NCBI GenBank assembly: GCA_942491805.1
Contig: CALOCG010000031.1
Span: forward strand, 20,514 to 84,513
From: Nitrospinota bacterium
Lineage (GTDB): Bacteria; Nitrospinota_A; UBA7883; JADGGD01
Reading direction: 5' to 3'
DNA: 64,000 nucleotides
Shown here: positions 40,873-63,850 of the stretch, one piece after another
Position numbering within the stretch: position 1 is the first letter of the stretch
Layout of the letters: each line of letters starts with the position of its first letter
Position numbers and translations under genes: made by a program
Notes under the pieces: generated by a model
What the model was told of the DNA's origin: nothing
Databases searched by the model: none
Seen by the model: only the letters and a program-made list of their open reading frames with translations

Positions 40873-42051
40873 ATGGGGCGGTTGACGGTGATTGCGCCGG
40901 TGAAAGGGGAAGAGGCGATGACCGAGCTGACCTTGCGGTCGCTTCGCGCCTTCTGCGGCGGCGCCGTCGGTCGGGTGATGGTGGTCGATAACAGCCCGGA
41001 TAACGCCACCCGTAAGCGACTCGACGCCCTGCGATGGTCGGCGGTCGAACGGGTCGTCGGGGCGCCCGACCTTTCTTTCTCGGCAGCCTGCAACCGGGGG
41101 GCCGACGAGGCCGACGAGGGGACGTTGCTTTTTCTCAATAACGACGTCGAGAGTCGGGCCGACTGGCTGACCCCTCTGCGTGCGCTTCATCGTGAGACCG
41201 GCGCCCTCGTCTCGGCGACGCTGACCTATCCCGACGGTCGCTTACAACACGCCGGAGAGGCTCTCCCGATGTGGGGGAACCCGTTCATACTCGGCGACGG
41301 CGGCGATGTCAACGATTCGCGTTATAGCGGTGTTCGCCGACGATGGGCCGCTATCGCCGCGCTTCTCCTCATCGACCGCTCTCTCTTTGAGGAGGTCGGA
41401 GGGTTCGAAGAAGGGTATCGGTTCGGCCTTGAGGATGTCGATCTCTGCCTGAAAGCCGGTGAGGCGGGGCGCCCGACGTTGGTGGCGGCCCGCACGGGGA
41501 TTATCCATCACACTTCGCAAACGGTGACGAAACTCCCCACGGCGGAGCGACAGGCGACGGTGGCGGCCAACAACACCCGATTCGCCGAACGATGGGGGGG
41601 GATGATCGAAGAACGGCAGGCGGTCTATTGCGAAGGGCTGCGGACACGGGGGGTCGAGCGATTGGTCATCGCCGGGGCGGGACGGGCCGCCGCCATGGCG
41701 GGGGGCGTTCTTGTTCGCCACGGCCTGACGGTGGCAGGTTATCTTGACGATACCGAGGCGGTACTTCCCGACGATGCGCCGGAAGCGCCGATGGTCGGGT
41801 ACGACGACGCGAAACGGCTCGGCGCCGACGCGATCCTCCCGGCTTCGGGGGGCGTTGGCCGCTATCGAAGCCAAACTGATGAACGCCGGGATAATGTCGA
41901 TGATGATCGACCCCGAGCTACCTCCCGGCTGAGGGAATCGTATTGCCACCATTACGGCGGGGTTGATAGACTGTCGGGATCGACGACCTTTTCTCTTCGA
42001 CGACACAACCCTCAGCCCTTCGAGGACGATGAACGAACCGACCTCTCCTGA
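40873..42051 (+). CDS. family 2 glycosyltransferase with C-terminal Rossmann-like extension (the 3' end may really finish at 41932 in another frame)
   Basis: VIAPVKGEEAMTELTLRSL...VVDNSPDN...LLFLNNDV...GFEEGYRFGLEDVDLCLK is a GT2 (GT-A, DxD) pattern. After the G6 run 41847-41852 the listed frame becomes Arg/Asp-rich with weak third-position G+C. The alternative frame reads GALAAIEAKLMNAGIMSMMIDPELPPG-stop. Confidence 0.7.
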   Translation: MGRLTVIAPVKGEEAMTELTLRSLRAFCGGAVGRVMVVDNSPDNATRKRLDALRWSAVERVVGAPDLSFSAACNRGADEADEGTLLFLNNDVESRADWLTPLRALHRETGALVSATLTYPDGRLQHAGEALPMWGNPFILGDGGDVNDSRYSGVRRRWAAIAALLLIDRSLFEEVGGFEEGYRFGLEDVDLCLKAGEAGRPTLVAARTGIIHHTSQTVTKLPTAERQATVAANNTRFAERWGGMIEERQAVYCEGLRTRGVERLVIAGAGRAAAMAGGVLVRHGLTVAGYLDDTEAVLPDDAPEAPMVGYDDAKRLGADAILPASGGVGRYRSQTDERRDNVDDDRPRATSRLRESYCHHYGGVDRLSGSTTFSLRRHNPQPFEDDERTDLS

Positions 42052-45244: not shown

Positions 45245-46477
45245 ATGTCGCAAAAGGTGTTGATCTTGGGGGGTGACGGTTTTTGTGGTTGGCCCACCGC
45301 ACTGCATCTGTCGCAACGGGGGTGGGACGTCACCATTGTCGATAATCTTTCCCGGCGAAAGATAGATGTGGAACTTGAGTGCGAGTCGCTTACGCCGATT
45401 CATCCCATCCATGCCCGTCTTGCCGCTTGGAAAAAAGTGTCGGGCAAAGATATTGAGTTCCACTTGCTCGATATCGCCGAAGATTATGACCGGCTGTTGG
45501 AGCTAATTCGGACGGTGGAGCCGGACGCGATCGTTCATTTCGCAGAGCAACGGTCGGCCCCCTATTCCATGAAGAGCAGCGCGAGCAAGCGGTATACCGT
45601 CGGGAACAATATCAACGCGACCAACAATGTTTTGTGCGCAATTGTTGAGTCGGGTAAGGACATTCACGTCGTTCATCTCGGCACCATGGGCGTCTACGGA
45701 TACGGGTCGGCTGGATTTAAAATCCCGGAAGGATACATCACCGTGCGGGTGGAGGGTGAGGGCGAAGCCATGGGCGTCCGACAACAGATCATGTATCCTC
45801 CCGATCCCGGTAGCATCTATCACATGACCAAAACGCAAGACGCCCTTCTGTTCTACTACTACAACAAGAACGACAAGATCCGGGTCACCGACCTACATCA
45901 GGGGGTTGTCTGGGGAACCAACACCGAAGAGACCATGATGGATGAGGTGTTGATCAACCGATTCGACTACGACGGCGACTATGGGACGGTCCTGAACCGC
46001 TTTCTCATGCAAGCGGCCGTGGGGCATCCTCTTACCGTTCACGGTAGCGGAGGCCAGACCCGGGCGTTTATTCATATCCGAGACAGTGTTCGATGCGTCG
46101 AGTTGGCGCTCGAAACCCCGCCGGAAAAGGGGGAGCGGGTTCGGATCTTTAATCAGATGACCGAAACCCATACCGTTTTGGAGCTGGCCAACAAAGTTAG
46201 CGGTCTTGCGGGAGGCGAATTGTCGTTCCTCCCTAACCCCCGGAATGAAGCGGCGAATAACTCTCTCCACGTGGAGAACGCCTGTCTCTTGGAATTGGGG
46301 CTGAAACCAACCAAACTAGCCGATCCGTTGCTGGAAAGAGAAGTCGAGTTAGCGAAGCGATTCGCGCAACGGTGCGACCGGTCGAAGATACTCTGCACCT
46401 CATTGTGGCATCGACAGGATGCGGTCAAAAAGAGTCCCTCCCCGTCTGATGCGCCTCTCTCCTCCCGGGTGTCATGA
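45245..46477 (+). CDS. sqdB: UDP-sulfoquinovose synthase (SQD1/SqdB family)
   Basis: 410 aa. LILGGDGFCGWPTALHL, SIYHMTKTQD and LINRFDYDGDYGTVLNRF are the hallmark motifs of SQD1/SqdB within the SDR superfamily. Confidence 0.9.
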   Translation: MSQKVLILGGDGFCGWPTALHLSQRGWDVTIVDNLSRRKIDVELECESLTPIHPIHARLAAWKKVSGKDIEFHLLDIAEDYDRLLELIRTVEPDAIVHFAEQRSAPYSMKSSASKRYTVGNNINATNNVLCAIVESGKDIHVVHLGTMGVYGYGSAGFKIPEGYITVRVEGEGEAMGVRQQIMYPPDPGSIYHMTKTQDALLFYYYNKNDKIRVTDLHQGVVWGTNTEETMMDEVLINRFDYDGDYGTVLNRFLMQAAVGHPLTVHGSGGQTRAFIHIRDSVRCVELALETPPEKGERVRIFNQMTETHTVLELANKVSGLAGGELSFLPNPRNEAANNSLHVENACLLELGLKPTKLADPLLEREVELAKRFAQRCDRSKILCTSLWHRQDAVKKSPSPSDAPLSSRVS

Positions 46478-48840
46478 CACATCAGGGCGGGAAACCGAAG
46501 GTTCTTTTTGTCCTTTCCGACGTGGTTGGGCCGGTACGTAACGGAGGGATCGGGACCGCCTACACCGCTCTTGCGCTGGAACTCGCTCGTGCCGGGCAGG
46601 AGGTTACGATCCTCTATGCTCTGGGCGACCATTGCGAAGATGCGTCTATCGAGCATTGGCGAAGGGAGTATCAAGAGCGGGGGATTCATTTTGAGCCTCT
46701 CCACTCCCGTCAACCCCTCGAAGCTCATGTCAACCGGCTGGCTCAAAGGTCGTACGACGTTTACGAGTGGATCAAAGGGCGTCACTACGACATCGTCCAT
46801 TTCCATGAATGGCAAGGGAACGGTTACTACCCACTCATGGGGAAAAAACTGGGACTCTGCCTGACGGAGGCGAAAGTCTGCGTCGGGATTCATAGCCCCA
46901 CGTTGTGGAACCTAGAGGGAAACAAGCGGTTTGTTTCGCGCTTGGAAGAACTCGAAGCCGACCACATGGAACGGAAAAGCGCCGAATGGGCCGATCTGGT
47001 CTGGTCGGCGAGCGATTACATGATCGACTACGTGACGCGACGGTCGTGGCGTCTTCCCAAGGAGCGAATCGGCGGTCACTATATTCTGCCGACGGTGAAG
47101 GAAGCGGCCCCCTTTCATCCGGCTCCTCGCCCGGTTCGTGAGCTGGTATTCTTCGGTCGTCTTGACGTCCGCAAAGGGTTGACCCTCTTTTGTGACGCGG
47201 TGGACGCCTTGGAGCGGCAAGGGCAAGACGATTTCACCGTCACCTTTCTCGGGAAGCGGGCGCGGGTGTTCGGGGTCGATAGTGAAGAATATATTCGGGA
47301 ACGGGCGCGGTCGTGGCGTGTCGAATGGAAAATGGAGTATCGATTCGGCGATGAAGCGTTCGCCTACCTAAAAGAGGAAGGGCGTATGGCGGTACTTCCC
47401 TCCCTGGTCGACAATATGCCGCTGACCGTTCTCGAATGTGTTCACTTAGGGCTCCCTTTCATCGCCGCCCGCACCGGTGGCATCCCCGAGAGTATCCAGG
47501 AAGAGGACCGGGAGGCGAATCTTTTCGAGCCGACAATCAAAGGGCTTGCCGAGAAGATCAGAGGAGCGTTGGATCAGGGCGTTTCGATGGTCCGGGCGAT
47601 GACGCCGTTGGCCGAAAATCGGGCCGCATGGGTTCGGTGGCATGAGACGACCATCGCCACAACGGGCTCCTCGACCTCAACAAGCGGGGACGACCTGCCG
47701 TTGATTTCGGTCTGCGTGACCCATTTCGACCGGCCCGGCTATTTGGCTCAAGCGCTCGACTCCTTGCGCAAGCAGACCTATCCGAACATAGAGGTCATCG
47801 TCGTCGACGATGGTAGTCCTTCTGTCGAAGCCCAGCGATATCTCAACGAACTTGAGCCGGAGTTTGAACGGCGCGGCTGGAGGGTGCTACGCCAGGAGAA
47901 CCGTTTCCACGGTGCGGCCCGCAACAACGCCGCGTCGATAGCCCGGGGCGAATACATTATGTTCATGGACGACGACAATGTGGCTAAACCCCACGAAGTG
48001 GAGTTGTTCGTGCGGGCCGCTCGTTTCTCCGGGGCTGACATCGTCACTTGTTTTCTCGACACCTTCTCCACCGAGTTCCCGCCGGAAAGCGAGTTTGACC
48101 GGGTTTTCAGATGGCCCTTTCTGGGGCCTTCCCCGTCGGTGGCTCTTTTCAAAAACTGTATTGGCGACACCAACGCCCTTGTCCGCAGAACCACGTTCAA
48201 ACAATTGGGGGGATTTCACGAACAATACGGGGTGGGGCACGAAGACTGGGAGTTTTACGTCAAGGCGCTACTGGCCGATTGCGTGGTCTTCACCATGCCC
48301 GAAGCGCTGGTTTGGTATCGACGAAGCGAGGCGAGTCAGACCCGTCGCAAATCCAAGCATTATGACAATCACATGCGGCACATTCTCCCCTACTTGGAGG
48401 CGGTCCCTCCTTCGCTAAAGAACGTGATCCTCTTCGCTCATGGGCAGCTTACGCCACAGATATCCGCTTCTCCCTCGGCGTCGGCGCCCGGAACGTCCTC
48501 CACCTTGTCGCCGCTAGACCATGTCAGAAAGGTGGCCATCTATGGCGCGGGGTCGGGAGGGGGGAAAGCTTTAGGCCTGGTCGGTCGCTTCGGCTGGGAG
48601 GTGGTCATGGTGGTCGATGGTTCGCAAGAACGTTGGGGAGAGCGCTGGCACGAGTATGAGATTCAGCCTCCCGAAAATATTGTGACCGGAGGCGTCGATC
48701 TCGTTATCGTTTCCTCCACGACGGGGCGACTTGCCATAGAGCGAAAACTCGAGTCCATAGGCCTCGTGCGGGGAAAAGACTTCCGCTATTTCCTTGAGAC
48801 GTTCACCTTCGAGGATCACGAGGTAAGGATTCGCCTTTAG
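46474..48840 (+). CDS. multidomain glycosyltransferase: GT4 (GT-B) + GT2 (GT-A) + C-terminal Rossmann-like module
   Basis: ATGA overlap with sqdB. GT4 part: NGGIGTAYTALALELARAG ... PSLVDNMPLTVLECVHLGLPFIAARTGGIPE. GT2 part: ISVCVTHFDRPGYLAQALDSLRKQTYPNIEVIVVDDGS ... FMDDDN. C-terminus: VAIYGAGSGGGKALG. Confidence 0.75.
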   Translation: MTHQGGKPKVLFVLSDVVGPVRNGGIGTAYTALALELARAGQEVTILYALGDHCEDASIEHWRREYQERGIHFEPLHSRQPLEAHVNRLAQRSYDVYEWIKGRHYDIVHFHEWQGNGYYPLMGKKLGLCLTEAKVCVGIHSPTLWNLEGNKRFVSRLEELEADHMERKSAEWADLVWSASDYMIDYVTRRSWRLPKERIGGHYILPTVKEAAPFHPAPRPVRELVFFGRLDVRKGLTLFCDAVDALERQGQDDFTVTFLGKRARVFGVDSEEYIRERARSWRVEWKMEYRFGDEAFAYLKEEGRMAVLPSLVDNMPLTVLECVHLGLPFIAARTGGIPESIQEEDREANLFEPTIKGLAEKIRGALDQGVSMVRAMTPLAENRAAWVRWHETTIATTGSSTSTSGDDLPLISVCVTHFDRPGYLAQALDSLRKQTYPNIEVIVVDDGSPSVEAQRYLNELEPEFERRGWRVLRQENRFHGAARNNAASIARGEYIMFMDDDNVAKPHEVELFVRAARFSGADIVTCFLDTFSTEFPPESEFDRVFRWPFLGPSPSVALFKNCIGDTNALVRRTTFKQLGGFHEQYGVGHEDWEFYVKALLADCVVFTMPEALVWYRRSEASQTRRKSKHYDNHMRHILPYLEAVPPSLKNVILFAHGQLTPQISASPSASAPGTSSTLSPLDHVRKVAIYGAGSGGGKALGLVGRFGWEVVMVVDGSQERWGERWHEYEIQPPENIVTGGVDLVIVSSTTGRLAIERKLESIGLVRGKDFRYFLETFTFEDHEVRIRL

Positions 48841-48895
48841 CCTCCCAGACTATCCGCATGGCGCCAGCGCATTGAGAGTGGGATATTCAGACACT

Positions 48896-49849
48896 ATGCA
48901 CCATATTTACGCATCCACCGTTTTTCGGGCGACTGCGGGCTCAGAAATAACGGGGTACCTATACAAAATACGGTGGCCAACGAGAGACGTCATCAAAAGG
49001 ATTGCGGTCCCTTTCTCGTCGGGCGATCGTTTATGGGGCGCCCGAGGCGGGAATCGGGGAGGAAGAGGAGTCGCCTTCTTTGGGGGAAAGGTTTACATGG
49101 CCACGGCTACGGCGATTCTTGTTTACGACACCAACCTGTGTCTGTTGGATTCTATTCGCCATGATTACATAACGGGTATCCACGAGATCATCGTCGACTC
49201 GTCAGGCATCATGGTCACCAGTACGCTCCATGACGCTCTCGTCAAGATAGACCATAGGGGAGAGGTTGTCTTCGAGTGGTGGGGGAGTCAAAGCGAACAG
49301 ATGCAAAGGCTCTTTCATTTTCTCCCTCGAGAGCTCGTACTCGACCACCGTGATTTTAACGCCATGCCCGACGAAGCGTACGAAAGGTACGCCAACGACG
49401 AGCGGTTGCATTTAAACGCAGCGGCCCACCAAGGAGAAGAGTGGTACATTTTGTCGAACCGCAAAAGGGCTATCATACGTATCCATCCCGGCCCGGAGAC
49501 GATCATTGTGCAAGACGATGAGTTGATCTCACCCCACAATCTAATTCTCACCGATACCGGAAGATTCATTTTGAACAATACCGGTCGTCAACAGGTCAGG
49601 GTGTATGCGCGAAACGGCGATCTGTTGTCGGTCATCGACACGTTTCAGTACCAAAGCGATGAATCGCGCCAATTCGCCAACGCCGGATGGCAACGTGGCC
49701 TTATTCATTTGGAGGGAGACCGTTATCTTTGCGGAACCTCGCCAGCGACTATTTTCGAAGTTGATATCGCGTCGGGTCGAGTTGCCCCGACCCTTCGGTT
49801 GGATGATGACGTTCGCCATTGCATTCATGGCTTGGGGGTCGAAGGGTGA
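48896..49849 (+). CDS. hypothetical protein (beta-rich, possibly propeller-like)
   Basis: ORF 48872..49849 (TTG), or ATG 48896. Visibly AT-richer than its neighbours. No motif I can name; it has repeated hydrophobic-strand patterns. Confidence 0.4.
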   Translation: MHHIYASTVFRATAGSEITGYLYKIRWPTRDVIKRIAVPFSSGDRLWGARGGNRGGRGVAFFGGKVYMATATAILVYDTNLCLLDSIRHDYITGIHEIIVDSSGIMVTSTLHDALVKIDHRGEVVFEWWGSQSEQMQRLFHFLPRELVLDHRDFNAMPDEAYERYANDERLHLNAAAHQGEEWYILSNRKRAIIRIHPGPETIIVQDDELISPHNLILTDTGRFILNNTGRQQVRVYARNGDLLSVIDTFQYQSDESRQFANAGWQRGLIHLEGDRYLCGTSPATIFEVDIASGRVAPTLRLDDDVRHCIHGLGVEG

Positions 49850-49851
49850 GC

Positions 49852-52800: not shown

Positions 52801-52926
52801 GGAGTGGCGTGTCTGAACCGACGCGATAAAAAAGAGGCTCGCCATTACTTCACCAAAGTGATCGCTTTACGCCCCGATCATCGAAAGGCCAGAGCGTCGT
52901 TGGATAAACTGGAGAAAAGCTCGTGA
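49852..52926 (+). CDS. family 2 glycosyltransferase fused to a long helical/TPR region
   Basis: ATG lies 2 nt after the previous stop. ISLVIPTFNRGWYLEKSLNSL...EILVIDDGSCDQT is the GT2 N-terminus. The C-terminus ends in a clear TPR (YHLGVACLNRRDKKEARHYFTKVIALRPDHRKA). Confidence 0.7.
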   Translation: MNPARVIPRDATCGLSRKRKGVRGISLVIPTFNRGWYLEKSLNSLSHTKAPKDLFEILVIDDGSCDQTELMVATFENRLPVRYLRIRAGGATRNCSVARNVGVIEARFPVVATTDPEILFTADVVSILLERFRRRRKSYVTAGGFIKLDRKRTLELASELAERQGFISEKQVVGEYDSLQMKGEGRFADLMAAFVPGSCDRKEWRWLFDQYDGFPQRVHPHDPHVLLAVWRDDLLAVGGYDERFRVWGSEDTDLLRRLETNMSLKRNYDSALKGVHLWHTEEGGLGGAGDEPEARASARSARVFLTQRQRVAAYRSRNGKARISPFVAGDIPQASVALASQDDTITPTLYASCLAEAGGDEWDDRVNELFGGHCAVADRLAWRGRPQAAMETYRYALMRPWERSPRTMAKGIAIAWRVTSKRLVQELLREPELFDRYTLALHATISLARLEGEQGNRDTGLRLIDAIPSQIERPYRVDWCRASLLRRHGDEEWAEELLWKAQKESGGWSLDRQRIELELSALLIRRGKRARAKSLAAGCARRLDRFLSPRFDSSTCEYLAHPVVEALMAVDEPEEAWRVIRPIATRSSRSFGIVKRAIEIGCVVSDEEGVVSLLSEACRRFPERSAMASLASAMESFQEARGDTICRKLAASLTERGGSPFVRAWLEMNESHKARKEFVTTLDGIPPEVVVHSLVMLNDDHLLGALHEDETVIRAAMETRELPQVLRYVEALIRIGHTDDASKFLLQPSIRDAAAETKLGRIEVRFTLGLLRCSHLGEAIKYLKRLHAKQCVYGANDCAGALAVTRLLQKEGALDMAASYLSSPKVISVGLMTDANVNAMARAIADILGPGKTDTFLKRAFRQKGVIPQAIALRAVTAQATGKRRVAQRFWREALQADRDRNGVVALLPLLIKWKGVETVALVATTEGIPEEDPLWSLLNYARSVLAEQAGDRLGASRFRRLVAEAPVTERTLPYIVSALYHLGVACLNRRDKKEARHYFTKVIALRPDHRKARASLDKLEKSS

Positions 52927-54704: not shown

Positions 54705-54778
54705 TTGGCGGCGAAAAAACAGAAGAGCTTATTCAGACAGCACAAAGATCAACAGCGCACCAAAAGAGAGATTAAATC

Positions 54779-55150
54779 ATGGCGTTATCTCCCAATCCTT
54801 ATGGGATCACCCTCGTCTCCTTCGGGTTTCGTTACGGTATCCCCAGGGCGAACTACTACTTTGACGTGAACTTTGCGAAGAACCCGGCGCGGGAGGAAAT
54901 CTGGGGTTTCTTCGCGCAACCCGACCACCAGATGCGCTCATACGTGCTTGAGCAGGAAAGCGTCGCCACGTTTATCGATCATACGGAGCCGTTGCTCGCC
55001 TTTCTTGCGACTCTGGACCAGCGACAGGTCTGCGCGTTCGGTTGCAGCGCCGGACGACACCGGAGCCCTATCATCATTGACGAACTGGCCGAGCGTCTGA
55101 AGGGACGACGCATTCACACGCAGATCGTGCATCGGGATAGCGATGACTGA
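54779..55150 (+). CDS. stand-alone RapZ C-terminal-domain-like protein
   Basis: 123 aa. LVSFGFRYGIPRANYYFDVNFAKNP ... FGCSAGRHRSPIIIDELAERL ... HRD parallels the E. coli RapZ C-terminal domain ([24 protein letters not shown] ... [20 protein letters not shown] ... HR). The N-terminal P-loop domain is absent. Confidence 0.7.
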   Translation: MALSPNPYGITLVSFGFRYGIPRANYYFDVNFAKNPAREEIWGFFAQPDHQMRSYVLEQESVATFIDHTEPLLAFLATLDQRQVCAFGCSAGRHRSPIIIDELAERLKGRRIHTQIVHRDSDD

Positions 55151-56823
55151 TACAAACGCCCCGTCGGGGATATGGACCGAGGAGGGAGAGCTTGCGCCGC
55201 TGTACGATGGGTGGAAGCGTCAGCCCTTTCGTGGCGATGTGGCCGTCATCCTCGTCAGCAAAGACCGCCCCGATCTTGTGGAGCAGACCATACGCCAAGT
55301 CCGGTCCATGGGGCATGGACTCACCGTAGACATCTATGTGATCGAGATGGGAACGGCTGAGGAGAATCTTACACCCCACACCTCATTCCGGTATGAGGAA
55401 GAGCGGTTCCGAGGCAAGTGCTACGGGCACAACGTCGGTTTGCGGTATGTCGCCGAGCGGGGGAGGTACCGGTACTATTGGTTCCTGATGAACGATCTTG
55501 TCTTTCCTCCGGGGGGAAGACACCATTGGAGTTATGGCGTCGGTGATGGCGGCGAACTCCCATATCGGCGTCATGAGTCCGGCGGAGCCCGAGGGGCCTT
55601 ATCCGTCCTGCGCTCCGGAGAAGGGGCGCGATTACCACCCGGTATCGACTTGCGATTATCTGGCTCTTTTCGTTCGGGGGGAATGCGTGGAGAAATACGG
55701 ATTTTTGAATCCAGCATTCAAATATTCCTGGGGGGCCATTCATGAGTACGCCTACCGGCTCTACACGGACGGGTGGAAGGTCGCCTATTGCGACCGGGTG
55801 ACAATGCGTCATTTGGGGGGAACCACCTATGGAAAAGTGAAAGGGGCGGTCAGCCGTGAAAAGTACCAGCTCCTGGCGAAGCAGTTCGCCGCTCGCTATT
55901 TTGTCGAGACCTACGGCAAAGAGTGGGACACTCTTTTCGGAAACGTTCTCCCCGAGGACATCGCCATTAACACCTTCCCCAGACATCGGCGTCTCTGGGA
56001 GACCGCCCTCGACGAGCAAGAGCGGGAAGCCCTTAATGCGAAGAGAGAACCGGTGGGAGGGAGCGTGTTGGAGCGTAAGATAGAAGCGCTCCATCCTTGG
56101 TATTACGACGTGATGATCGGCCCCTATCGGGTGACCCCTGGCGTTGGGTCGCGCGAGACCGCCGAGCAACTGCGTCAGCGGAAGAACTACTCCGAAACCT
56201 TGTGGGTCGATGAGGTCGCATGTCGCTGTGAGATCAAAGGAAAGCGGATCCTCGATGTCGCTTCGAACTGCGCTTATTATTCCTCTCGCTATGCCGAACG
56301 GGGAGCTGTCTCCGTTACGGCTGTCGAGGGGCGCGCTTCGTATGTCGAGCAGGGGAAGCTCTACTGGGAAAACAATGACTTTCTTCCTGAAGATAAAATC
56401 AGATTCATCCACGGCGATGTGACCGACGGTAAAACATGGCGGCAGGTGGAAGCCGACGGCCCGTACGATATTTCGCTTTGTTGCGGAATCCTCTACCATA
56501 TCGCCGACGCGGAAACCCTCCTGCGACGGATCGCCCGGGTTACGTCGGAAGCCATGTTGGTCGATACGAGGGTGGGGGACGACACCGGTATGGTTGTCGA
56601 ACCGGGAGGGTGGTGTTTCGACGCCATCGCTCAGACCAGAGAAAAACGGATTCCGACACTCGAGTCGTTGGTGACGCTTCTGGAAGAGCTTGGATTCGCC
56701 TGCGAGAGAATCGAAACCTCCGCCCCGGTCCCCGAGGGGATGAAAGGGGGGGACGACTACGCGATCGGCAAGCGGGTCGCCTTGCTCGCTACACGAAAGG
56801 TAGGCTCGGATCGTGGAGAGTGA
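55143..56823 (+). pseudogene. GT2-like domain fused to class I SAM methyltransferase (DUF1698-like), frame interrupted once (possible artefact)
   Basis: The N-terminal part is in ORF 55143..55745 (VAVILVSKDRPDLVEQTI...YYWFLMNDLVFPP). The continuation is in ORF 55498..56823 (EDTIGVMASVM...DYLALFVRGE...). The methyltransferase core is KRILDVASNCAYYSSRYAERGA...LCCGILYHIAD. The switch is at the G6 run 55511-55516. Confidence 0.65.
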
Positions 56824-57790
56824 CCTTTTGTCACGCAAGCGACGGTACGATTCCGTTCAGATTGAGCTGACGAACCATTGCAACTATCGTTGCGCGCGAT
56901 GTCCCCAGTCGACGTCTCACGGTCTTGAGGAGAGGGGCTTTGATCGTCACAAGGGGTATATGCCCATCGACCTGTTTCGACAGGCCTTCGAAGAGTCTTC
57001 CACCGTAACCGACGTGATCAATTTCAGCTTCTTTGGCGAACCCACGTTGCATCCGGCCTTCGATGAAATCATGAGGTATGTCTCTGATCGGCGGGAGGGG
57101 CTTGCGATCGTCATCAACACCAATCTTTCTCGTATGACCCATGCGATGTTCGAGTCCGTTCTGGCCGGAAGGATCGACGAGCTACGAGTAAGCGTCGATG
57201 CCGCTACGCCGGAAATCTACGACCGGGTTCGTCCCGGCAGGGGCGTGGTCGATCTGGAAGGAAGACCGACCAAGGATCGGTTTGCGGCGATTGAACGAAA
57301 ACTCAAAGCTTGGAGCCGTATCAAAGACCATTGCCGTACGCGCCATGTCTATACGGTGAGTAGCGTCAATCTCGTTGATCTTCCCGCATATGTCGATCGT
57401 TGGGCGCCGACACTGACGGGTGAGGATCATATTCTTGCGAAAATCGTCCTGACCTACGGAGGACTTATGAATGATCCTTTGGTGGAGCCACACCCCTGCA
57501 CCGTTTGGGATCGGGTGTCGCTTACCATTGATTGGACGGGGAGGATGTCGCCCTGCAACCTCGATACGAACATGAGTTTATCAGTGGGACGCCTAGGTGA
57601 AGAGGAGCTTGCGACGCTACCCTCCGGCCATGCGTGGAAGCTGATGCGGGAACGTTCTGAAGAGGCTCGGTGCGCGCCCTGCGACCGGTGCGTCGATGCG
57701 AATAACTGGAGCCAAAACAGGCTTTTCAGAAAGGGCGACCGCATTCTTCCTCGTGAGGCGGCGGCGTGGTTTGGAGGGGCGGTGTATTGA
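56813..57790 (+). CDS. radical SAM protein with Cys-rich (SPASM/twitch-like) C-terminus
   Basis: GTG start overlapping the upstream gene by 11 nt. IELTNHCNYRCARCPQ is the CxxxCxxC cluster. C-terminal cysteines: CTVWD...SPCNLD...CAPCDRC. Confidence 0.8.
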   Translation: MESDLLSRKRRYDSVQIELTNHCNYRCARCPQSTSHGLEERGFDRHKGYMPIDLFRQAFEESSTVTDVINFSFFGEPTLHPAFDEIMRYVSDRREGLAIVINTNLSRMTHAMFESVLAGRIDELRVSVDAATPEIYDRVRPGRGVVDLEGRPTKDRFAAIERKLKAWSRIKDHCRTRHVYTVSSVNLVDLPAYVDRWAPTLTGEDHILAKIVLTYGGLMNDPLVEPHPCTVWDRVSLTIDWTGRMSPCNLDTNMSLSVGRLGEEELATLPSGHAWKLMRERSEEARCAPCDRCVDANNWSQNRLFRKGDRILPREAAAWFGGAVY

Positions 57791-58665
57791 GTTTCGATCC
57801 GAAGGGACCAATCCTGTTTCTTTCGCGCGGTCATTCCGGGACGGCGGCTGTTACGCGATTGCTTATGGCGGCTGGAATCGACATGGGGGATCCGAACGAT
57901 GCGGAGGTTTTGAATCGGACCTGCGATTCGCTCCCCTTCACCTACCGATTCCAGAGAGAGATTCTTCCTGGACGGTTTACTGTTGGGAGTGGAGCGCTGG
58001 CGAAGTTCGATGAGTCGTTGCACGCTGTCGGTGTGTCGTGCGTCTCAGACCACCTGAAGGGGCGTGAACCCGATAGGTGGGGGTTCAAGACATGTGATGG
58101 CATGTTCTCCCACGAGTACTATCGCGCTCTTTTTCCCCGGGCCAAGTTTGTTTATCTGGTACGGGACGGCCGCGACGTCATCCTCTCTGGCAACGGCTAT
58201 TTCCAGATGACCAACCCTTCGTCGCGCGGGCTCCATTGGGACTATTTTTGGATACTTACCTTCGGACTCTCTGACGACGCCTCGCGGGCGCCCTTCGAAA
58301 TACCGGCCAGTCCCCGCTCCGAAGATGATGTGATCCGTCACCGGTATTGGATTCAGGCCAAGTCGTGGATTGAGCATGTGCGAATGGTCGAGGCGTTGAG
58401 GAACGAGCGACGGTTGGCGCCCGACACCTTGTTTGTTCGTTACGAAGACTTGTGCCAAGAACCGGAAAAAGAGGTCGCTCGATTACTCGATTTCCTCGAA
58501 ATGCCGATGGTCGATGGCGTCCGGCGATATTTCGAGACCGAGCTCCATGCCGACTCCATTGGAAAGTGGAGACGGTATCATCGATACATCAATGGCTCAG
58601 AGGAATCGATGGCCGAAGTCTTCGCTCTCATGGAGCCGGAGCTTCGCCTTTTGGGGTATCTCTGA
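57766..58665 (+). CDS. sulfotransferase family protein
   Basis: PILFLSRGHSGTAAVTRLL (5'-PSB-like) and FVYLVRDGRDVILS (3'-PB-like). The start may be TTG 57787 instead of ATG 57766. Confidence 0.7.
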   Translation: MVWRGGVLSFDPKGPILFLSRGHSGTAAVTRLLMAAGIDMGDPNDAEVLNRTCDSLPFTYRFQREILPGRFTVGSGALAKFDESLHAVGVSCVSDHLKGREPDRWGFKTCDGMFSHEYYRALFPRAKFVYLVRDGRDVILSGNGYFQMTNPSSRGLHWDYFWILTFGLSDDASRAPFEIPASPRSEDDVIRHRYWIQAKSWIEHVRMVEALRNERRLAPDTLFVRYEDLCQEPEKEVARLLDFLEMPMVDGVRRYFETELHADSIGKWRRYHRYINGSEESMAEVFALMEPELRLLGYL

Positions 58666-58676: not shown

Positions 58677-59486
58677 TTAGGGGGATTGCGGATCGAGCGC
58701 CGTACGCTCGACAAGAATATTATCTTTTGTCGTGTCGAGGATGGCGCGAGCGGCGACGTTCTTTCGGGGCCCTTTAGGGTTTCCGGTCGCCAGCAGGCTG
58801 ACCTCGTATACTGATCCGAACATCCGTTCCCACGGGGCGGAGTCAAGGGCATAGACCAGATTGGGGCCGATGCGACACAAACGAGAATAACCATGAGTGA
58901 GGAGGATCTTGTTCAGACTCGTTTCGTGTGGGGTGTCGTGGGACTCGATGATGAAAATGCGAGGGTGATGACGAGAGAGGTCGAGTCCGCGAAGAACCTC
59001 TACTTCGTACCCTTCTACATCGATAGAGGCGAAGTCCAAAGAAAGGTCTATATGGTTATCGAGAACAGTGTCAAGACGCCGGACTTCAATGGTCTGCTCG
59101 GTGAAACCTGAAAAATACTCGCCAAAACGAGAGGCGAACCGAGTTTCCTGAGATCGGTCAAGGGTCGAGAGACTGCCCAGAGCGTTGGCGTAGAAAGCCT
59201 GACGGTCGAGGTCCTCCGGGCCAGCGGCCAGATGATACAAAGCGTCATCGGGCCGGTTCTGAGTGAGTAGGGGGTAGAAATCGGCATGCGCCTCCACGCA
59301 GACACCTCTCCATCCTTTTTGGTAGAAATGGAAGGTGTTGCTAAAGTGCATACCGTCGAGGCAACCTACTTCCAGATAACTTCCCTTCCTGTCAATGCCG
59401 AGTAGTTTTTCAACAAGGAAGTCCTCGCCGTTTTGGCTGTAGTATGGAAGGGGAGTTGTCTGAGAATCGCTTTCTTTCGTTTGCAT
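58677..59486 (-). CDS. FkbM-family SAM-dependent methyltransferase
   Basis: YYSQNGEDFLVEKLL...GSYLEVGCLDGMHFSNT...ASIDVEGYEVEVLRGL is the FkbM-type pattern. Confidence 0.7.
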   Translation of the reverse strand: MQTKESDSQTTPLPYYSQNGEDFLVEKLLGIDRKGSYLEVGCLDGMHFSNTFHFYQKGWRGVCVEAHADFYPLLTQNRPDDALYHLAAGPEDLDRQAFYANALGSLSTLDRSQETRFASRFGEYFSGFTEQTIEVRRLDTVLDNHIDLSLDFASIDVEGYEVEVLRGLDLSRHHPRIFIIESHDTPHETSLNKILLTHGYSRLCRIGPNLVYALDSAPWERMFGSVYEVSLLATGNPKGPRKNVAARAILDTTKDNILVERTALDPQSP

Positions 59487-59533
59487 GGCCTCAGTTTATC
59501 ACGAGGCGCTCAACACATATCTCGCCGTGTGTA

Positions 59534-60406
59534 ATGATGAAAAAGAAGATCGGTGTTGATTTCCACCACTGGTGGCCAATCCCCCGGCCTCCGTTGGAGC
59601 ATTTCAGAAGGATGTTCCCCTTCCTTGACGAACGATACCTCTTTGTCTTGACCGATCGACCCGATGTCACCCTCTTTTCATGCTTTGTCAACGGCGTCTG
59701 CCAATCGGTCATGCCCGACCCGGTGGGAACAGGAATGAGCGTCTTTTATACCGGGGAAAACGTTCGTCCTGACATGTCCCGTTGCGACTGGGCGTTTTCC
59801 TTTTGCCATGACATCTCCGATCCGGGCCATATGCGTCTTCCGAACTATGTGGTGCGAATGAGTTGGCAAGGCTATCATTCCGAATCGTTGATTCGGCGAC
59901 CCGACGAACAAGCGTTGAGCGAGGACTTTTCCCGGCGGAAGTTCTGCGCATTCATCCATCGCCATCCGGTCTCTTTTCGTGACGACTTTGTGAAAGAATT
60001 ATCCCGATACAAGCGGGTCGATTGCGGTGGGCCCTGCATGAACAATATCGGACACCATGTAGACGACAAGATCGCCTTTCTCGCCGGATACAAATTCGCC
60101 ATGGCTTTCGAAAACGCCTCGGCCCCCGGCTACACCACGGAGAAGATCGTCGACGCCATGCTCGCCCGCACTGTTCCTCTCTATTGGGGCGATCCGCTGG
60201 TGGCGCATGATTTCAATCCCGCCTCATTCCTGAACTACGCCGACTACGATCACGAACGGGCGTTCATCGAGAAGATTATCGAACTCGATAACGACGATGA
60301 AGCCTATCGCGCCATGGTTCTGGCCCCCTACCTTCACGACAATCGCGTCCCTCCCGTCTTTTCTCAAGAGGCGTTAGAAGAGCGTTGGCGAACGATTTTC
60401 GGTTGA
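59534..60406 (+). CDS. GT10 family alpha-(1,3/4)-fucosyltransferase
   Basis: KFCAFIHRHPVSFRDDFVKELSRYKRVDCGG...YKFAMAFENASAPGYTTEKIVDAMLARTVPLYWGDPLVAHDFNPASF parallels the Helicobacter FucT motifs (YKFNLCFEN..GYGYVTEKI.DAYFS.TIPIYWG.P). Start ATG 59534 (MMKKKIG) avoids overlap with the divergent gene. Confidence 0.85.
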   Translation: MMKKKIGVDFHHWWPIPRPPLEHFRRMFPFLDERYLFVLTDRPDVTLFSCFVNGVCQSVMPDPVGTGMSVFYTGENVRPDMSRCDWAFSFCHDISDPGHMRLPNYVVRMSWQGYHSESLIRRPDEQALSEDFSRRKFCAFIHRHPVSFRDDFVKELSRYKRVDCGGPCMNNIGHHVDDKIAFLAGYKFAMAFENASAPGYTTEKIVDAMLARTVPLYWGDPLVAHDFNPASFLNYADYDHERAFIEKIIELDNDDEAYRAMVLAPYLHDNRVPPVFSQEALEERWRTIFG

Positions 60407-60486
60407 CGTCGGGCGGAGCGAACGCTGGTTCGCGAGTGACATGATATAGAAATAGACTAGACTATAGCTCGCTATCGGGAGGTCGC

Positions 60487-61428
60487 ATGTTCTCATCATC
60501 GAAGATTTTTGTCGCCGGGCGCGGGCTTGTCGGATCGGCCCTCCTCCGGGCGCTTCAACGTATGGGATACGCGAATATCCTCTCCCCAACCCGTCAGGAA
60601 CTTGATCTCACGTCTCAAGCTGATGTGAAGGATTTTTTTGAAGAAGCGTGTCCCGAGTACGTCTTCCTTGCGGCGGCGAAGGTGGGGGGGATAGAGGCCA
60701 ACAACACCCGTCGAGCCGAGTTTATCTACGAAAACCTGATTATCGAGGCCAACGTCATACATCAGGCGCATCTCTCAGGCGTCAAGCGTTTCCTCTTTCT
60801 CGGTAGCTCCTGCATCTACCCGCGCGACGCCGAGCAACCAATGCGCGAGGAGAGCCTCCTCACCGGTCCCTTAGAACAGACCAACGAGCCATATGCGGTC
60901 GCTAAAATGGCCGGGCTGAAGATGTGCGAGTCGTATCGTCGACAACACGGTGACGATTTCTTCTCGGTCATGCCGACCAACCTCTACGGCCCTGGCGACA
61001 ACTACGACCTGAATTCTTCACACGTCCTTCCCGCCCTTCTTCGCAAGGCGCACGAAGCGAAAGTCGCCAACGCTCCGTATCTGGAGGTATGGGGAAGCGG
61101 GCGCCCCCTGCGAGAATTCCTTCACGTCGACGATCTGGCCGACGCCTGCGTATTCCTAATGAACGATCATCGTTCCCATGAGCTTCTGAATGTCGGTTCG
61201 GGGGAGGAGGTATCCATCCGGAAGTTGGCTGAAATTATCTGCTCTGCCGTCGGCTATGACGGAGAACTGCGGTTCGACCCTTCCCGTCCCGATGGGGCTC
61301 CCCGGAAACTGCTTGATACACGTCGTTTGGCCGACCTCGGGTGGACGCATAAGATCGATCTGACGGAAGGTATCGCCGCAACCTACGTCGACTTCCTGAT
61401 GAGACTTGAGGAAGGAACGCTTCGGTAA
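60487..61428 (+). CDS. fcl: GDP-L-fucose synthase (GDP-4-keto-6-deoxymannose 3,5-epimerase/4-reductase)
   Basis: 313 aa. IFVAGRGLVGSAL, FLAAAKVGGIEANN, LGSSCIYP, NEPYAVAKMAG and PTNLYGPGDN are typical Fcl/WcaG motifs. Confidence 0.95.
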   Translation: MFSSSKIFVAGRGLVGSALLRALQRMGYANILSPTRQELDLTSQADVKDFFEEACPEYVFLAAAKVGGIEANNTRRAEFIYENLIIEANVIHQAHLSGVKRFLFLGSSCIYPRDAEQPMREESLLTGPLEQTNEPYAVAKMAGLKMCESYRRQHGDDFFSVMPTNLYGPGDNYDLNSSHVLPALLRKAHEAKVANAPYLEVWGSGRPLREFLHVDDLADACVFLMNDHRSHELLNVGSGEEVSIRKLAEIICSAVGYDGELRFDPSRPDGAPRKLLDTRRLADLGWTHKIDLTEGIAATYVDFLMRLEEGTLR

Positions 61429-61438
61429 ATGGTTTGGC

Positions 61439-62128
61439 CTACTTCTCGATGAGCGCCACTAGTGAGTGGGGGGCGTTCAACTGGTGGTCGATGACCTTTA
61501 GTCCGATGGAATTGATCAGCGTGACGAGGCTATGCCGCGTGAACATCCACCAGTAGGGACCGTATCGGTGGGGGCCGTCGTAATTGAAGGGGGTGGAGAT
61601 GCCCACCGCCGTCCCACTCCCGACGTTCTCAGCGAAGTAGCGAGCGAGGACCAGCCGTTCCGCCTCTGACAGGGCGGGGACAAATAGAGCTCCCGAATCG
61701 GGAAAATCGAATCGTCCTGCGTCGTTTTCGATATGAGTAGGGACGATGAAACTTTGGAGAATGAGCCGCTCGTTAGTCATCCGGGAAAGATTGTGGATGA
61801 GGCGTGGTGGGTCGTAGTGATGATAGAGGACTCCCGAACAATGGACCACATCGAAGGCAAGACCCTCATGGTCCCGGTCGATAGTGGTCAAATCGGCCGA
61901 TACGCTACCGTATTCAGATATCCCTTTGTCCTTCATCCGTTCGTGGAACTTCTCCCACCAGACATCGTCAGGCTTTTGCACATCAATCATCGTCGCATGA
62001 GAGGCTCCGGCGGCTAGCCCGACGGAAATCTTTTCGTTAACGGTGTTCCACAAGCCCCCAACGTCGGCGAAGGTCTTGCCGGGAACGGACCGATGAATGA
62101 ACTCGTTGCGGTAGTCGATCTTTTGCAC
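61439..62128 (-). CDS. class I SAM-dependent methyltransferase
   Basis: GTG start. TFADVGGLWN...ATMIDV (motif I / acidic loop) and FDVVHCSGVLYHHYDPPRLIHNL. Confidence 0.6.
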   Translation of the reverse strand: MQKIDYRNEFIHRSVPGKTFADVGGLWNTVNEKISVGLAAGASHATMIDVQKPDDVWWEKFHERMKDKGISEYGSVSADLTTIDRDHEGLAFDVVHCSGVLYHHYDPPRLIHNLSRMTNERLILQSFIVPTHIENDAGRFDFPDSGALFVPALSEAERLVLARYFAENVGSGTAVGISTPFNYDGPHRYGPYWWMFTRHSLVTLINSIGLKVIDHQLNAPHSLVALIEK

Positions 62129-62413
62129 GTGATCCTTGGCGCTGATAAATGAATAGTATGGGGAATCCCTCGCTTGCTCGGCTCAGCCAAAACCCCCTCA
62201 TCCTAGGTCTTTTTGATGCGTTTGGCAATTACCTTAAAAGGTTCCCTCTCATCAAGAAGGGGATTCATTCACTTCGCTGAAACAGACGAGACTAGAGAAA
62301 TATTCCGTCAATTGCGGGCATCTGTCAGACGCAGTTACGTATTGCAATACATGCGCTATCCCTCATAATGAGCAGAGGATTCGCATTATTGAACGACATC
62401 GGTTCTTTCCGAA

Positions 62414-63850
62414 ATGACCAAACCAAAAATATCACTTGTCCATTGCCCAAAATGGGACGTTCGTTGTCCACCCTACTGGGCGGCTCTTTTGGCAGGCAAC
62501 TTGCGCTCGCGGGGATATGAGGTCTCACAGAAAGATTGCGATATTGAAATGTATCACCTTGTCGAGGCGGACGAACGAAAGCTTTGGGGGATGGACGTCC
62601 TAAACTTTTGGGGTGGTGTTGCAAGTGAGGAAGGTAATCTTAATGGCTTTCTCAAGAAATACGAGTCGGTTCTGGACCGGTTTGTAGATGAGATATTGGA
62701 AGAAAAACCTGACATCGTCGGTTTCAGCATTCGTCCCGGCACCAGAATCTTCTCAAGGCAATTGGCGAAACGTCTCAAGGCAAAAGCCACCGACGTCTAC
62801 ATAATATTTGGAAGTATTTCCGCGATTCATGAGCATGGACCGCAAGACCTGCCGTTTGTCGACGCCCTTTCCGTGGGAGAAGCCGATGAATCGTTTCCGA
62901 AGTTCTTGGAAGGATATGCGGTTGACGGGAGTTGGCCACAGCCAACGCCCGGTTTTACCTATCGGAAGAGGGATGGAAGTGTCGTCGAATGTGGCCCCGT
63001 TGAAGATATCCCGGCGCTTGATGGTTTGCCGCATGCCGATTTTTCAGACTATGACTTTACTCGTTATCTTCGGGCGCATACCGTTCCGCTAATGTTTTCA
63101 CGAGGCTGTGTCTACAAGTGCAGTTTTTGTTCGGCTTTCGGTAAATACATGCGATATCGGACGATCGACGTCGATGTCGTCGCCGAGAACGTTAAACGAG
63201 TTCTAGAAACTACCAATGCTCAACGCCCTCTCTGTGTTATGGCCACCGACCAATTGCTCAACGGCAATTTAAAACAATTATTGAAACTGAGCCAGAAGTT
63301 GTCAATGCTTTCTGAAAACATAAAGTGGGAAGGGATGTTGAGCCTGAGAGCGGAGATGACCTATGATTACTTGGCCACTCTGTGCCGTTCTGGCCTTGTA
63401 AGCGTATTTGTCGGCATGGAGTCCGCTAGCGAGGCGGTGTTGAAAAGAATGGGGAAACGAACGAAAGTTGATGAGTCTGAACGGATCATCAAGACCTTTT
63501 GGGAGATGGGGGTGCTGGTCCATTTATCGCTGGTTATCGGCCATCCGGGAGAAACCGAAGCTGAGTTCGAAAAGACGTACGAATTTTGTCAACGGATAAA
63601 AAAATACGTATCGGGTATTTCGGCCTCTCCGCTTAGTTTGGGCGATCCTGACTCTGGCATCGTTAAGAATCCGGAAAAGTATGGCGTGAATCTCACCCAC
63701 CCTATCCATTGGATCGCCGACGAAGGGGCCAATACGTTTTCGATACGGCAGGAAAGGACCCAAAGAATCCGCAATATTGTTGCAGAGACAGACTGGAAGG
63801 CGATCCATGCGACGACGATTGAAAATCGCAAGCTATTTCATCCGCGTTAG
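62414..63850 (+). CDS. radical SAM protein with N-terminal B12-binding-like domain (class B type)
   Basis: 478 aa. The N-terminal Rossmann-like part (ISLVHCPKW...DIVGFSIRPGT) is followed by MFSRGCVYKCSFCSAF (CxxxCxxC). Visibly AT-richer than the locus average. The B12 domain call is tentative. Confidence 0.7.
   Translation: MTKPKISLVHCPKWDVRCPPYWAALLAGNLRSRGYEVSQKDCDIEMYHLVEADERKLWGMDVLNFWGGVASEEGNLNGFLKKYESVLDRFVDEILEEKPDIVGFSIRPGTRIFSRQLAKRLKAKATDVYIIFGSISAIHEHGPQDLPFVDALSVGEADESFPKFLEGYAVDGSWPQPTPGFTYRKRDGSVVECGPVEDIPALDGLPHADFSDYDFTRYLRAHTVPLMFSRGCVYKCSFCSAFGKYMRYRTIDVDVVAENVKRVLETTNAQRPLCVMATDQLLNGNLKQLLKLSQKLSMLSENIKWEGMLSLRAEMTYDYLATLCRSGLVSVFVGMESASEAVLKRMGKRTKVDESERIIKTFWEMGVLVHLSLVIGHPGETEAEFEKTYEFCQRIKKYVSGISASPLSLGDPDSGIVKNPEKYGVNLTHPIHWIADEGANTFSIRQERTQRIRNIVAETDWKAIHATTIENRKLFHPR

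Follow-up and report, generated by a model that had tools for sequence, protein, structure and literature searches.

A UDP-sulfoquinovose synthase gene in a putative surface-glycan island of an uncultured Nitrospinota bacterium

Current reviews treat sulfoquinovose as a sulfolipid product of phototrophs, and its dedicated genes are known from the operons for sulfoquinovosyl diacylglycerol (SQDG; sqdB-sqdX or sqdBDC) of cyanobacteria, Rhodobacter, and Sinorhizobium. The glycosyltransferases SqdX and SQD2 of sulfolipid synthesis are stand-alone GT4 enzymes of about 380-500 aa. Here, we analyze a block of about 23 kb (positions 40873-63850) within a 64,000-nt stretch of Nitrospinota metagenome assembly (the whole stretch is called the window hereafter). 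This block combines a gene for the UDP-sulfoquinovose synthase SqdB with genes for several glycosyltransferases, for fucose supply and transfer, and for sulfotransferases, methyltransferases, and two radical S-adenosylmethionine (SAM) enzymes (Table 1). In our best reading, which is probable though far from assured, the block is a surface-glycan island that uses sulfoquinovose outside sulfolipid while priming and export are encoded elsewhere.

The sulfolipid operons resemble the window in having an orthologous SqdB with a GT4 domain encoded directly after it, as in Synechococcus PCC 7942 where sqdB and sqdX are adjacent (PMC13436972). They differ in that the GT4 domain of the window is fused to a GT2 domain and encoded in a string of nine genes whose other products include sulfotransferases, methyltransferases, and a radical SAM enzyme, and the window lacks equivalents of sqdC, sqdD, and sqdA. 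The same source (PMC13436972), which reviews how bacteria cycle sulfoquinovose and dates from July 2026, never uses the words polysaccharide, glycoprotein, or glycoconjugate. In the archaeon Sulfolobus acidocaldarius, the UDP-sulfoquinovose synthase Agl3 feeds sulfoquinovose into an N-glycan (PMC4388408), and the N-glycan of Thermoplasma contains 6-C-sulfofucose according to a reference cited in PMC12421959. These systems are alike in that an SQD1-type synthase serves a non-lipid glycoconjugate and has carbohydrate-active genes nearby. However, they are archaeal, build dolichol-linked N-glycans, and need AglB, whereas the window is bacterial, shows no oligosaccharyltransferase, and encodes an SqdB of the cyanobacterial/proteobacterial type (about 70% identity) and not of the Agl3 type; it also adds fucose, O-sulfation, and radical SAM genes. 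Sulfated polysaccharides are encoded by the xss/synechan locus of Synechocystis (PMC8205485) and the capsule locus of the marine Vibrio sp. KMM 8419 (PMC11641403), and these share with the window the placement of sulfotransferases of the 3'-phosphoadenosine 5'-phosphosulfate (PAPS) type among glycosyltransferases for an anionic extracellular polymer. Both loci are of the Wzx/Wzy type, include export genes and regulators of their own, and lack a C-sulfonated sugar, while the window combines sqdB with fucose genes and a pair of radical SAM enzymes and has no such export genes. Finally, E. coli O9a with WbdA/WbdD and Geobacillus with WsaE represent O-antigen and S-layer-glycan assembly that depends on ABC transporters and employs soluble multi-domain enzymes with terminal methylation. 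Their likeness to the window is purely architectural: soluble glycosyltransferases have several domains, a glycosyltransferase is fused to a methyltransferase, repeat or coiled regions without catalytic role occur, and the chain is built entirely in the cytoplasm; wzm/wzt, unlike in these systems, are missing from the block.

The predicted SqdB of the window matches Arabidopsis SQD1 (PDB 1qrr) across residues 3-393 with an E-value of 4.3e-106. It has a GxxGxxG-type NAD site (GGDGFCG, residues 9-15), and its LGTMG and YHmtK motifs align with T145, Y182, H183, and K186 of SQD1 so that the catalytic residues are kept. Cyanobacterial and proteobacterial proteins that their sources name UDP-sulfoquinovose synthase are 67-72% identical to it (67-70% for the cyanobacterial ones), and its score of 348 bits against NCBIfam model NF041015 falls below the equivalog cut-off of 575. 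A neighbor-joining tree of 119 homologs, which carries no support values, pairs the window protein with the one from metagenome contig L010 and then with SqdB of Thiohalobacter, in a clade without labeled cyanobacteria. Among the homologs, a 675-aa protein from JGI metagenomes (P0111) has a PAPS/APS-reductase domain (PF01507) fused to an SqdB homolog (69% identity), and this architecture would link the formation of sulfite directly to that of UDP-sulfoquinovose.

The closest SqdB (78% identity) is encoded on the Logan contig L010 just ahead of a GT2 gene, not a GT4 gene. The product of this GT2 gene and the GT2 domain of the window's large GT2-TPR protein (TPR, tetratricopeptide repeat) are orthologs with 49-51% identity. 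The next closest named SqdB (71%) is that of Thiohalobacter sp. COW1, apparently an isolate given its complete 3.57-Mb genome, where the gene order reads Wzz-SqdB-sulfotransferase-Wzy-MatE-GT2-methyltransferase-aminotransferase-Bac_transf-methyltransferase-FkbM-FkbM. In Ideonella and Methylomonas, SqdB is followed by a second short-chain dehydrogenase/reductase (SDR) and then by a 1095-1458-aa GT2-GT2-GT4 protein, and the Ideonella locus additionally has ABC-2/ABC_tran genes. As these three loci show, sqdB turns up repeatedly within polysaccharide loci. The Thiohalobacter locus resembles the window by its PAPS-type sulfotransferase and its class I and FkbM methyltransferases, the other two by their multi-domain GT2/GT4 enzymes. 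All three differ from the window in possessing Wzz/Wzy/MatE/Bac_transf or ABC-2/ABC_tran genes, and in lacking fcl, GT10, the sulfatase-like fusion, the RapZ C-terminal domain protein, and radical SAM genes, all of which the window has. Gene order around sqdB is not conserved in these loci, as is common among surface-glycan loci. The window shares no more than generic GT2 similarity with the giant glycosyltransferases of Ideonella and Methylomonas, so that no common sulfoquinovosyltransferase domain emerged from this comparison.

A preliminary description of this DNA had implied that the combination of genes was unique, and this was overstated: Thiohalobacter, too, has sqdB in a polysaccharide locus that includes a sulfotransferase and FkbM methyltransferases, and in Ideonella and Methylomonas the gene stands in such loci near giant glycosyltransferases. 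We read the locus as a surface-glycan island that has related, uncharacterized loci elsewhere and is less singular than had been suggested. Our literature searches found no published description of sqdB-bearing polysaccharide loci or of a bacterial sulfoquinovose polysaccharide. As a separate observation, the second SDR (an epimerase/dehydratase) directly after sqdB in Ideonella (11196-12125 of contig L014) and Methylomonas (11206-12162 of contig L015) could turn UDP-sulfoquinovose into a different sulfosugar, for example sulfofucose.

In the window, sqdB opens a continuous string of nine same-strand genes (45245-58665) that are separated by overlaps or by gaps of no more than 74 nt. The stop codon of sqdB ends at 46477 and the next ATG starts at 46474 (ATGA overlap), at a GTGA junction the start codon GTG at 52923 shares bases with the upstream gene's TGA (52924-52926), and two further junctions overlap by 8 nt (55143) and 11 nt (56813). 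A start at GTG 57766 gives an overlap of 25 nt with the preceding gene, and one at TTG 57787 an overlap of 4 nt; all other gaps in the string are 2, 31-55, and 74 nt long. A codon-usage frame scan trained on confident genes matches all annotated frames from 40.8 to 63.9 kb. The open reading frames (ORFs) and junctions given in the preliminary description are all present in the sequence, yet its operon of ten genes becomes one of nine because the ORFs 55143-55745 and 55498-56823 are a single frameshifted gene. Searches of Pfam, NCBIfam, and the PDB bore out almost all of its family calls, and those of SqdB and the sulfotransferases, whose failure it had named as refuting its interpretation, pass profile and motif tests. 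Overall, its enzyme assignments stand, its gene count and the uniqueness that it implied do not, and the combined product that it proposed is plausible.

GC content drops from 59.8% upstream to 55.8% from 42 kb onward, and reduced GC is commonly seen in surface-glycan islands. The first GT2 gene has 64.5% GC, resembling the flanking genome, and therefore lies at the left edge of this lower-GC island or just beyond it. A promoter and terminator scan gave counts no different from shuffled expectation. At 90% identity, the window proteins are singletons among 15 billion sequences.

Sulfation would be provided by two proteins of the string. The stand-alone sulfotransferase (Pfam Sulfotransfer_1 50.6 and Sulfotransfer_3 50.9 bits) contains the motifs GHSGT (SGT) and RDGRD and weakly matches StaL and TPST in the PDB. 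The second is a fusion of a degenerate sulfatase-like domain (Pfam Sulfatase 30.5 bits, residues 11-77) with a sulfotransferase domain (Sulfotransfer_3 30.9 bits, residues 342-479). The formylglycine motif C/S-x-P-x-R is replaced by SWVSL in the window protein, and all five sequences of the fusion family lack the Pro and Arg of this motif and keep only the first metal-binding Asp invariant; the PRSGT and RDPR motifs of the PAPS loops are invariant in the same five (alignment A2). An assignment as formylglycine-dependent S1 sulfatase was considered and rejected, since the fusion family has neither the C/S-x-P-x-R motif nor the paired metal Asp. The sulfatase-like domain had been missed in the preliminary description, and the fusion is rare: an exhaustive search of 1.84 billion representatives retrieved only four full-length relatives (35-38% identity), a word-index homolog search with the 593-aa protein gave no match, and metagenome-contig scans with the fusion alignment, as with the GT2-TPR protein, found no relative.

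One of these four relatives is encoded on a metagenome contig unrelated to the window (L018, 62.6% GC), whose segment 2139-13041 is an uncharacterized tailoring cassette with two paralogous sulfatase-like/sulfotransferase fusions. A radical SAM gene overlaps one of the two by 8 nt, and its product is 30% identical to the B12 enzyme of the window (E 9e-56); the contig further encodes a radical SAM/SPASM protein (E 3e-11 to that of the window), a methyltransferase with 30% identity to the domain of the frameshifted gene (E 4e-18), an SDR, and a small hydrophobic ORF of 83 aa. Two more of its proteins are GT-A-like as judged by eye, and no sqdB is visible in these 13 kb. This co-occurrence indicates that the fusion, both types of radical SAM enzymes, and the methyltransferase form a co-inherited unit beside glycosyltransferases. 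The radical SAM genes thus plausibly belong to the tailoring set, and their company with the fusion on L018 supports their inclusion in the glycan block as first proposed.

The radical SAM enzyme with a SPASM/twitch-type C-terminal domain has cysteine motifs CNYRCARC (residues 23-30) and CAPCDRC (residues 287-293), and its best solved relative is the sugar-type dehydrogenase BtrN (E 3e-7). A role as anaerobic sulfatase-maturating enzyme (anSME) was rejected because the neighboring sulfatase-like family has no CxPxR motif and BtrN is the closest solved structure; the anSME model is also absent from the best 25 of 33 NCBIfam matches. The B12-binding (class B) enzyme at the far end of the block carries CVYKCSFC at residues 232-239 (CxxxCxxC), received no equivalog-level NCBIfam assignment, and has the lowest GC content of the block (48.9%, about 7-11 points below its neighbors and the genome), which suggests a separate acquisition. 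Four SAM methyltransferase domains were counted in the block, among them the FkbM-family enzyme (which also scores 47.3 against TIGR01444, cut-off 37.7) and a class I enzyme that is a distant paralog of the methyltransferase domain in the frameshifted gene (24% identity, E 2e-5). The preliminary description had also overlooked the stand-alone RapZ C-terminal domain. An assignment as a RapZ-type RNase adaptor was rejected for this protein because it consists of the C-terminal domain only and lacks the N-terminal P-loop domain.

Table 1. Predicted genes of the glycan block, given in window coordinates
Predicted product	Coordinates	Strand	Basis
GT2 glycosyltransferase, 392 aa	40873..42051	+	Pfam Glycos_transf_2 30.7 bits, cut-off 23.3
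NHL-repeat and TPR protein, ~978 aa	42029..44962	+	Pfam NHL 68 bits, weak TPR_14
UDP-sulfoquinovose synthase SqdB/SQD1	45245..46477	+	PDB 1qrr match, catalytic residues, homolog names
GT4 (residues 9-400) and GT2 (residues 410-630) fusion, 788 aa	46474..48840	+	Pfam; ATGA-coupled to sqdB
Unknown family, 317-325 aa, beta-rich	48896..49849	+	No Pfam, NCBIfam, or PDB match
GT2 (N-terminal), ~700 aa unassigned, and C-terminal TPR, 1024 aa	49852..52926	+	Pfam
Degenerate sulfatase-like (alkaline-phosphatase superfamily) and PAPS-type sulfotransferase fusion, 593 aa	52923..54704	+	Pfam
Stand-alone RapZ C-terminal domain, 123 aa	54779..55150	+	Pfam PapZ_C 83.8 bits; PDB 5o5s E 2.5e-10
Split gene: weakly GT-A-like N-terminal domain and class I SAM methyltransferase	55143..56823	+	Frame scans, Pfam
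Radical SAM enzyme with SPASM/twitch-type C-terminal domain	56813..57790	+	Pfam Radical_SAM 46, SPASM 26.2
PAPS-type sulfotransferase, 299 aa	57766..58665	+	Pfam, motifs
FkbM-family methyltransferase	58677..59486	-	Pfam Methyltransf_21 68 bits; TIGR01444
GT10 alpha-1,3-fucosyltransferase-like	59534..60406	+	Pfam, PDB
GDP-L-fucose synthase Fcl	60487..61428	+	E. coli GMER 1bsv E 1.8e-106
Class I SAM methyltransferase	61439..62128	-	Weak Pfam Methyltransf_23/12
B12-binding (class B) radical SAM enzyme	62414..63850	+	Pfam Radical_SAM 67.3, B12-binding 37.7, above cut-offs

Five glycosyltransferase domains were recognized in the block (GT2, GT4 and GT2, GT2-TPR, GT10), and a possible sixth is the GT-A-like domain of the frameshifted gene. 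In the GT4-GT2 fusion, Pfam finds Glycos_transf_2 (104.5 bits), Glyco_trans_1_4 (60.4), and Glyco_trans_4_4 (49.4), with Glyco_trans_4_4, Glycos_transf_1, and Glyco_trans_1_4 all above their cut-offs in the GT4 part. The GT2-TPR protein matches Glycos_transf_2 with 51 bits and TPR_2 with 32.2 bits. The fucosyltransferase-like protein is supported by Glyco_transf_10 (64.6 bits) and FucT_N (45.1 bits), both above cut-off, and by a match to the H. pylori FucT (2nzw, E 1e-30); its ORF opens at 59444, and the coding signal together with an MMKKK start indicates a beginning at about 59534. The fucose synthase Fcl keeps GSSCIYP, YAvAK, and SSHVLPALL (Ser107/Tyr136/Lys140 and Cys109/His179 of GMER) and reaches 474 bits against NF047922, just short of the cut-off of 500. 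The ORF of the NHL/TPR protein opens with TTG at 41963, with ATG at 42029 as the likelier start, and the protein has neither a signal peptide as read from its N-terminus nor a transmembrane segment by hydropathy. The beta-rich protein shows coding signal from about 48960, the frame scan suggests a start at about 48896 instead of 48872, and its single-sequence AlphaFold2 model is unusable (pLDDT 38.9). By hydropathy, none of the 17 proteins of the block has a transmembrane segment or any hydrophobic stretch of membrane-spanning length.

The frameshifted gene deserves separate comment. One extra G in a run of six (55510-55515) splits it into the ORFs 55143-55745 and 55498-56823; codon-position GC and codon usage place the frame change at about 55500, 250 nt ahead of the stop of the first ORF, and deletion of a single G restores an uninterrupted ORF of 559 aa. 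The tail of the 200-aa first ORF is rich in Gly, Arg, and Ser and represents out-of-frame sequence. The C-terminal part matches Methyltransf_25/11 of Pfam. For the N-terminal part, comparison with a GT2 profile from the window gave a hhalign probability of 17% (E 0.0015), and neither Pfam nor PDB searches recognized it as GT2, so that we call it weakly GT-A-like at best. Other genes of the window are broken as well: uvrC (1032-2875), a dnaJ-like gene (23644-24658, minus strand), and recG (29481-31602) each fall into two ORFs that overlap in different reading frames. A G6 run lies at the break of uvrC (1844), the dnaJ-like ORFs overlap across a C7 run at 24221, recG breaks near 30500, and RecG is intact with 706 aa in the closest relative, a Nitrospinae contig (L017). 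These breaks in uvrC, the dnaJ-like gene, and recG indicate indel errors of the assembly. An assembly indel is therefore also the most likely cause of the frameshift at 55143-56823, a real inactivation being less likely. Elsewhere, a homopolymer of 14 G (11192-11205) lies between two FHA-domain ORFs (10728-11192 and 11217-11702) and could be an assembly artifact, a split gene, or a slippage tract.

From these assignments, a coherent pathway can be proposed. SqdB would turn UDP-glucose plus sulfite into UDP-sulfoquinovose, and Fcl would complete GDP-L-fucose with Gmd encoded elsewhere. The five, possibly six, glycosyltransferase domains, all parts of soluble proteins, would build the chain on the cytoplasmic side; the two PAPS-type sulfotransferase domains would add O-sulfate and the four SAM methyltransferase domains methyl groups. 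The BtrN-like radical SAM/SPASM enzyme and the B12 radical SAM enzyme may oxidize, epimerize, or C-methylate sugar carbons. The product would be a strongly anionic surface polysaccharide with sulfoquinovose, either O-antigen-like or an exopolysaccharide, for which the primer, the export machinery, and the supply of PAPS, sulfite, and GDP-mannose would be encoded outside the window. We infer that all enzymes of the block act on one product carrying sulfoquinovose, fucose, O-sulfate, and methyl groups, and we likewise infer whether a polysaccharide, a protein, or a lipid is the acceptor and what the radical SAM enzymes, the RapZ C-terminal domain, and the sulfatase-like domain do. A surface polysaccharide seems the most likely product by analogy with the loci of Thiohalobacter, Ideonella, and Methylomonas and with the ABC-transporter-dependent systems of soluble multi-domain enzymes.

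Several observations weigh against this reading. Genes for a priming transferase, a flippase, a polymerase, an ABC exporter, or a ligase are missing from the block, as are gmd and PAPS/sulfite genes, and none of its proteins has a transmembrane segment; in Pfam terms, no family of priming phosphoglycosyl transferases, flippases/polymerases, or Wzm/Wzt was found in 40873-63850. In agreement with the preliminary description, gmd, PAPS-synthesis, priming-transferase, flippase, and polymerase genes were absent from all window ORFs scanned. The only ABC-2/HlyD transporter set of the window, which belongs to the ABC2_membrane_3 type, lies at 31.5-34.4 kb, with valS and regulators between it and the block. 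Since export and priming genes as well as transmembrane segments are lacking, the status of the product as a polysaccharide rests on analogy. The window ends only 150 nt past the last gene, although its source contig measures 101,555 nt, one gene of the block is frameshifted in the assembly, and neither the genome scans nor the metagenome-contig scans found a syntenic copy of the whole island. Furthermore, TPR and NHL domains would be equally suited to protein substrates, the nearest solved relatives of the sulfotransferases (StaL and TPST, weak matches) act on peptides, and the GT4 domain encoded directly behind sqdB may yet prove to be a sulfolipid synthase.

The points about protein substrates lead to the alternative that survives best, which we nevertheless regard as unlikely: cytoplasmic protein glycosylation, where the TPR and NHL proteins recognize flagellin, pilin, a surface-layer protein, or another abundant protein that the soluble enzymes decorate directly. 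No lipid carrier or flippase would be needed for this, in line with the 17 soluble proteins and the lack of carrier-lipid or export genes in the block. The C-terminal TPR on a GT2 protein and the separate NHL/TPR protein also fit, because TPR-linked flagellin glycosyltransferases such as FlmG of Caulobacter exist, and so do the weak matches of the stand-alone enzyme to peptide/tyrosine sulfotransferases and the FlgO/PEGA genes located 12-15 kb upstream. However, recG, a transporter, valS, and regulators lie between the FlgO cluster and the block, no candidate substrate gene is found in or beside the block, and the closest SqdB homologs with readable context are encoded in classic polysaccharide loci.

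Ordinary sulfolipid synthesis, in which SqdB and the GT4 domain make SQDG or a related phosphorus-sparing glycolipid beside an adjacent conventional surface-glycan locus formed by the remaining genes, appears rather improbable to us. It would explain why the ATGA junction couples sqdB to a GT4 domain just where sqdX adjoins sqdB in Synechococcus PCC 7942 and where a GT4 enzyme would be expected from SqdX and SQD2, and it agrees with the high identity of the window protein to cyanobacterial SqdB. Yet, this GT4 domain is part of a soluble 788-aa protein with a GT2 domain, and a genome scan found homologs of the fusion in nine genomes of other phyla (Sulfurovum, Bacteroidetes, Kryptoniota, Acidobacteriota, and Novosphingobium; up to 42% identity), none of which has sqdB within 10 kb. 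The fusion and the lack of sqdB near its nine homologs argue against a plain sqdB-sqdX sulfolipid pair. The GT2 gene that follows the closest SqdB homolog and the position of sqdB as first gene of an overlapping nine-gene string point in the same direction. The cyanobacterial sqdB neighborhoods that we examined yielded no reference SqdX.

Very improbable, finally, is a small sulfated and methylated glycoside or modified peptide on which the radical SAM pair would act as in aminoglycoside pathways or those of ribosomally synthesized and post-translationally modified peptides (RiPPs): the best NCBIfam match of the B12 enzyme is indeed a RiPP C-methyltransferase family (120 bits), SPASM enzymes often mature peptides, BtrN is an aminoglycoside enzyme, and export or polymerase genes are lacking, but all radical SAM NCBIfam matches stay far under their cut-offs, no intergenic gap holds a precursor-like small ORF (which led us to reject the RiPP idea), genes for nonribosomal peptide or polyketide synthases, aminocyclitol, proteases, or transporters are absent, and five to six glycosyltransferase domains exceed the usual need of such products.

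Returning to the surface-glycan reading, we tentatively propose, as a broader notion that may turn out either way but is the less secure part of our interpretation, that non-phototrophic bacteria including Nitrospinota put sulfoquinovose together with fucose, O-sulfate, and methyl groups into surface glycans that are finished by a co-inherited module of fusion, radical SAM enzymes, and methyltransferase. Such a module of sulfatase-like/sulfotransferase fusion, B12 radical SAM enzyme, radical SAM/SPASM enzyme, and methyltransferase would be previously undescribed, and the rare fusion and its radical SAM partners would be new carbohydrate-tailoring enzymes. If this is true, then Nitrospinota nitrite oxidizers, sulfur oxidizers, and methanotrophs would constitute a second biological source of an abundant organosulfur sugar, and the C-sulfonated sugar of sulfolipids and archaeal N-glycans would also build bacterial polysaccharides or glycoproteins as an unrecognized sulfoquinovose pool. 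These doubly anionic glycans (sulfonate and sulfate) would be a new bacterial class and offer new substrates for sulfoquinovosidases and sulfatases. All of this is based on the genes read from an error-prone metagenome assembly, and the organism is uncultured.

As judged by the presence of LpxB, whose best named matches are proteins of Nitrospinae/Nitrospinota metagenome-assembled genomes (81%, then 53-57% identity), the host is an uncultured, marine-type Nitrospinota and a lipid-A-bearing diderm. Upstream of the block, the window encodes uvrC, two TPR-cyclase paralogs, a cytochrome c, a DASS-family transporter, a release factor, a tRNA (19281-19352, the sole Rfam match of the window), lpxB, the FlgO/PEGA set, and recG, followed by the HlyD/ABC/ABC-2 transporter, valS, a response regulator with TPR, and a GAF-HisKA protein. 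The UPF0114 protein adjoining the transporter of the Na+/sulfate symporter family (DASS/CitMHS) at 13412-15643 is found in the same arrangement in the closest relative, contig L017, and this pair may possibly serve anion uptake in an organism with the heavy sulfur demand of the island. Three FlgO-domain proteins and one PEGA-domain protein adjoin lpxB at 26118-29258 and are kept on L017 as well. The TPR-cyclase paralogs are arranged in tandem (4258-6255 and 6277-8289, both on the minus strand), and each has an adenylate/guanylate cyclase domain in addition to long TPR arrays. If the peptide chain release factor (16680-17720, minus strand) is prfB, the programmed +1 frameshift site common in this gene would be expected just upstream; its ORF of 346 aa encodes PCRF and RF-1 domains.

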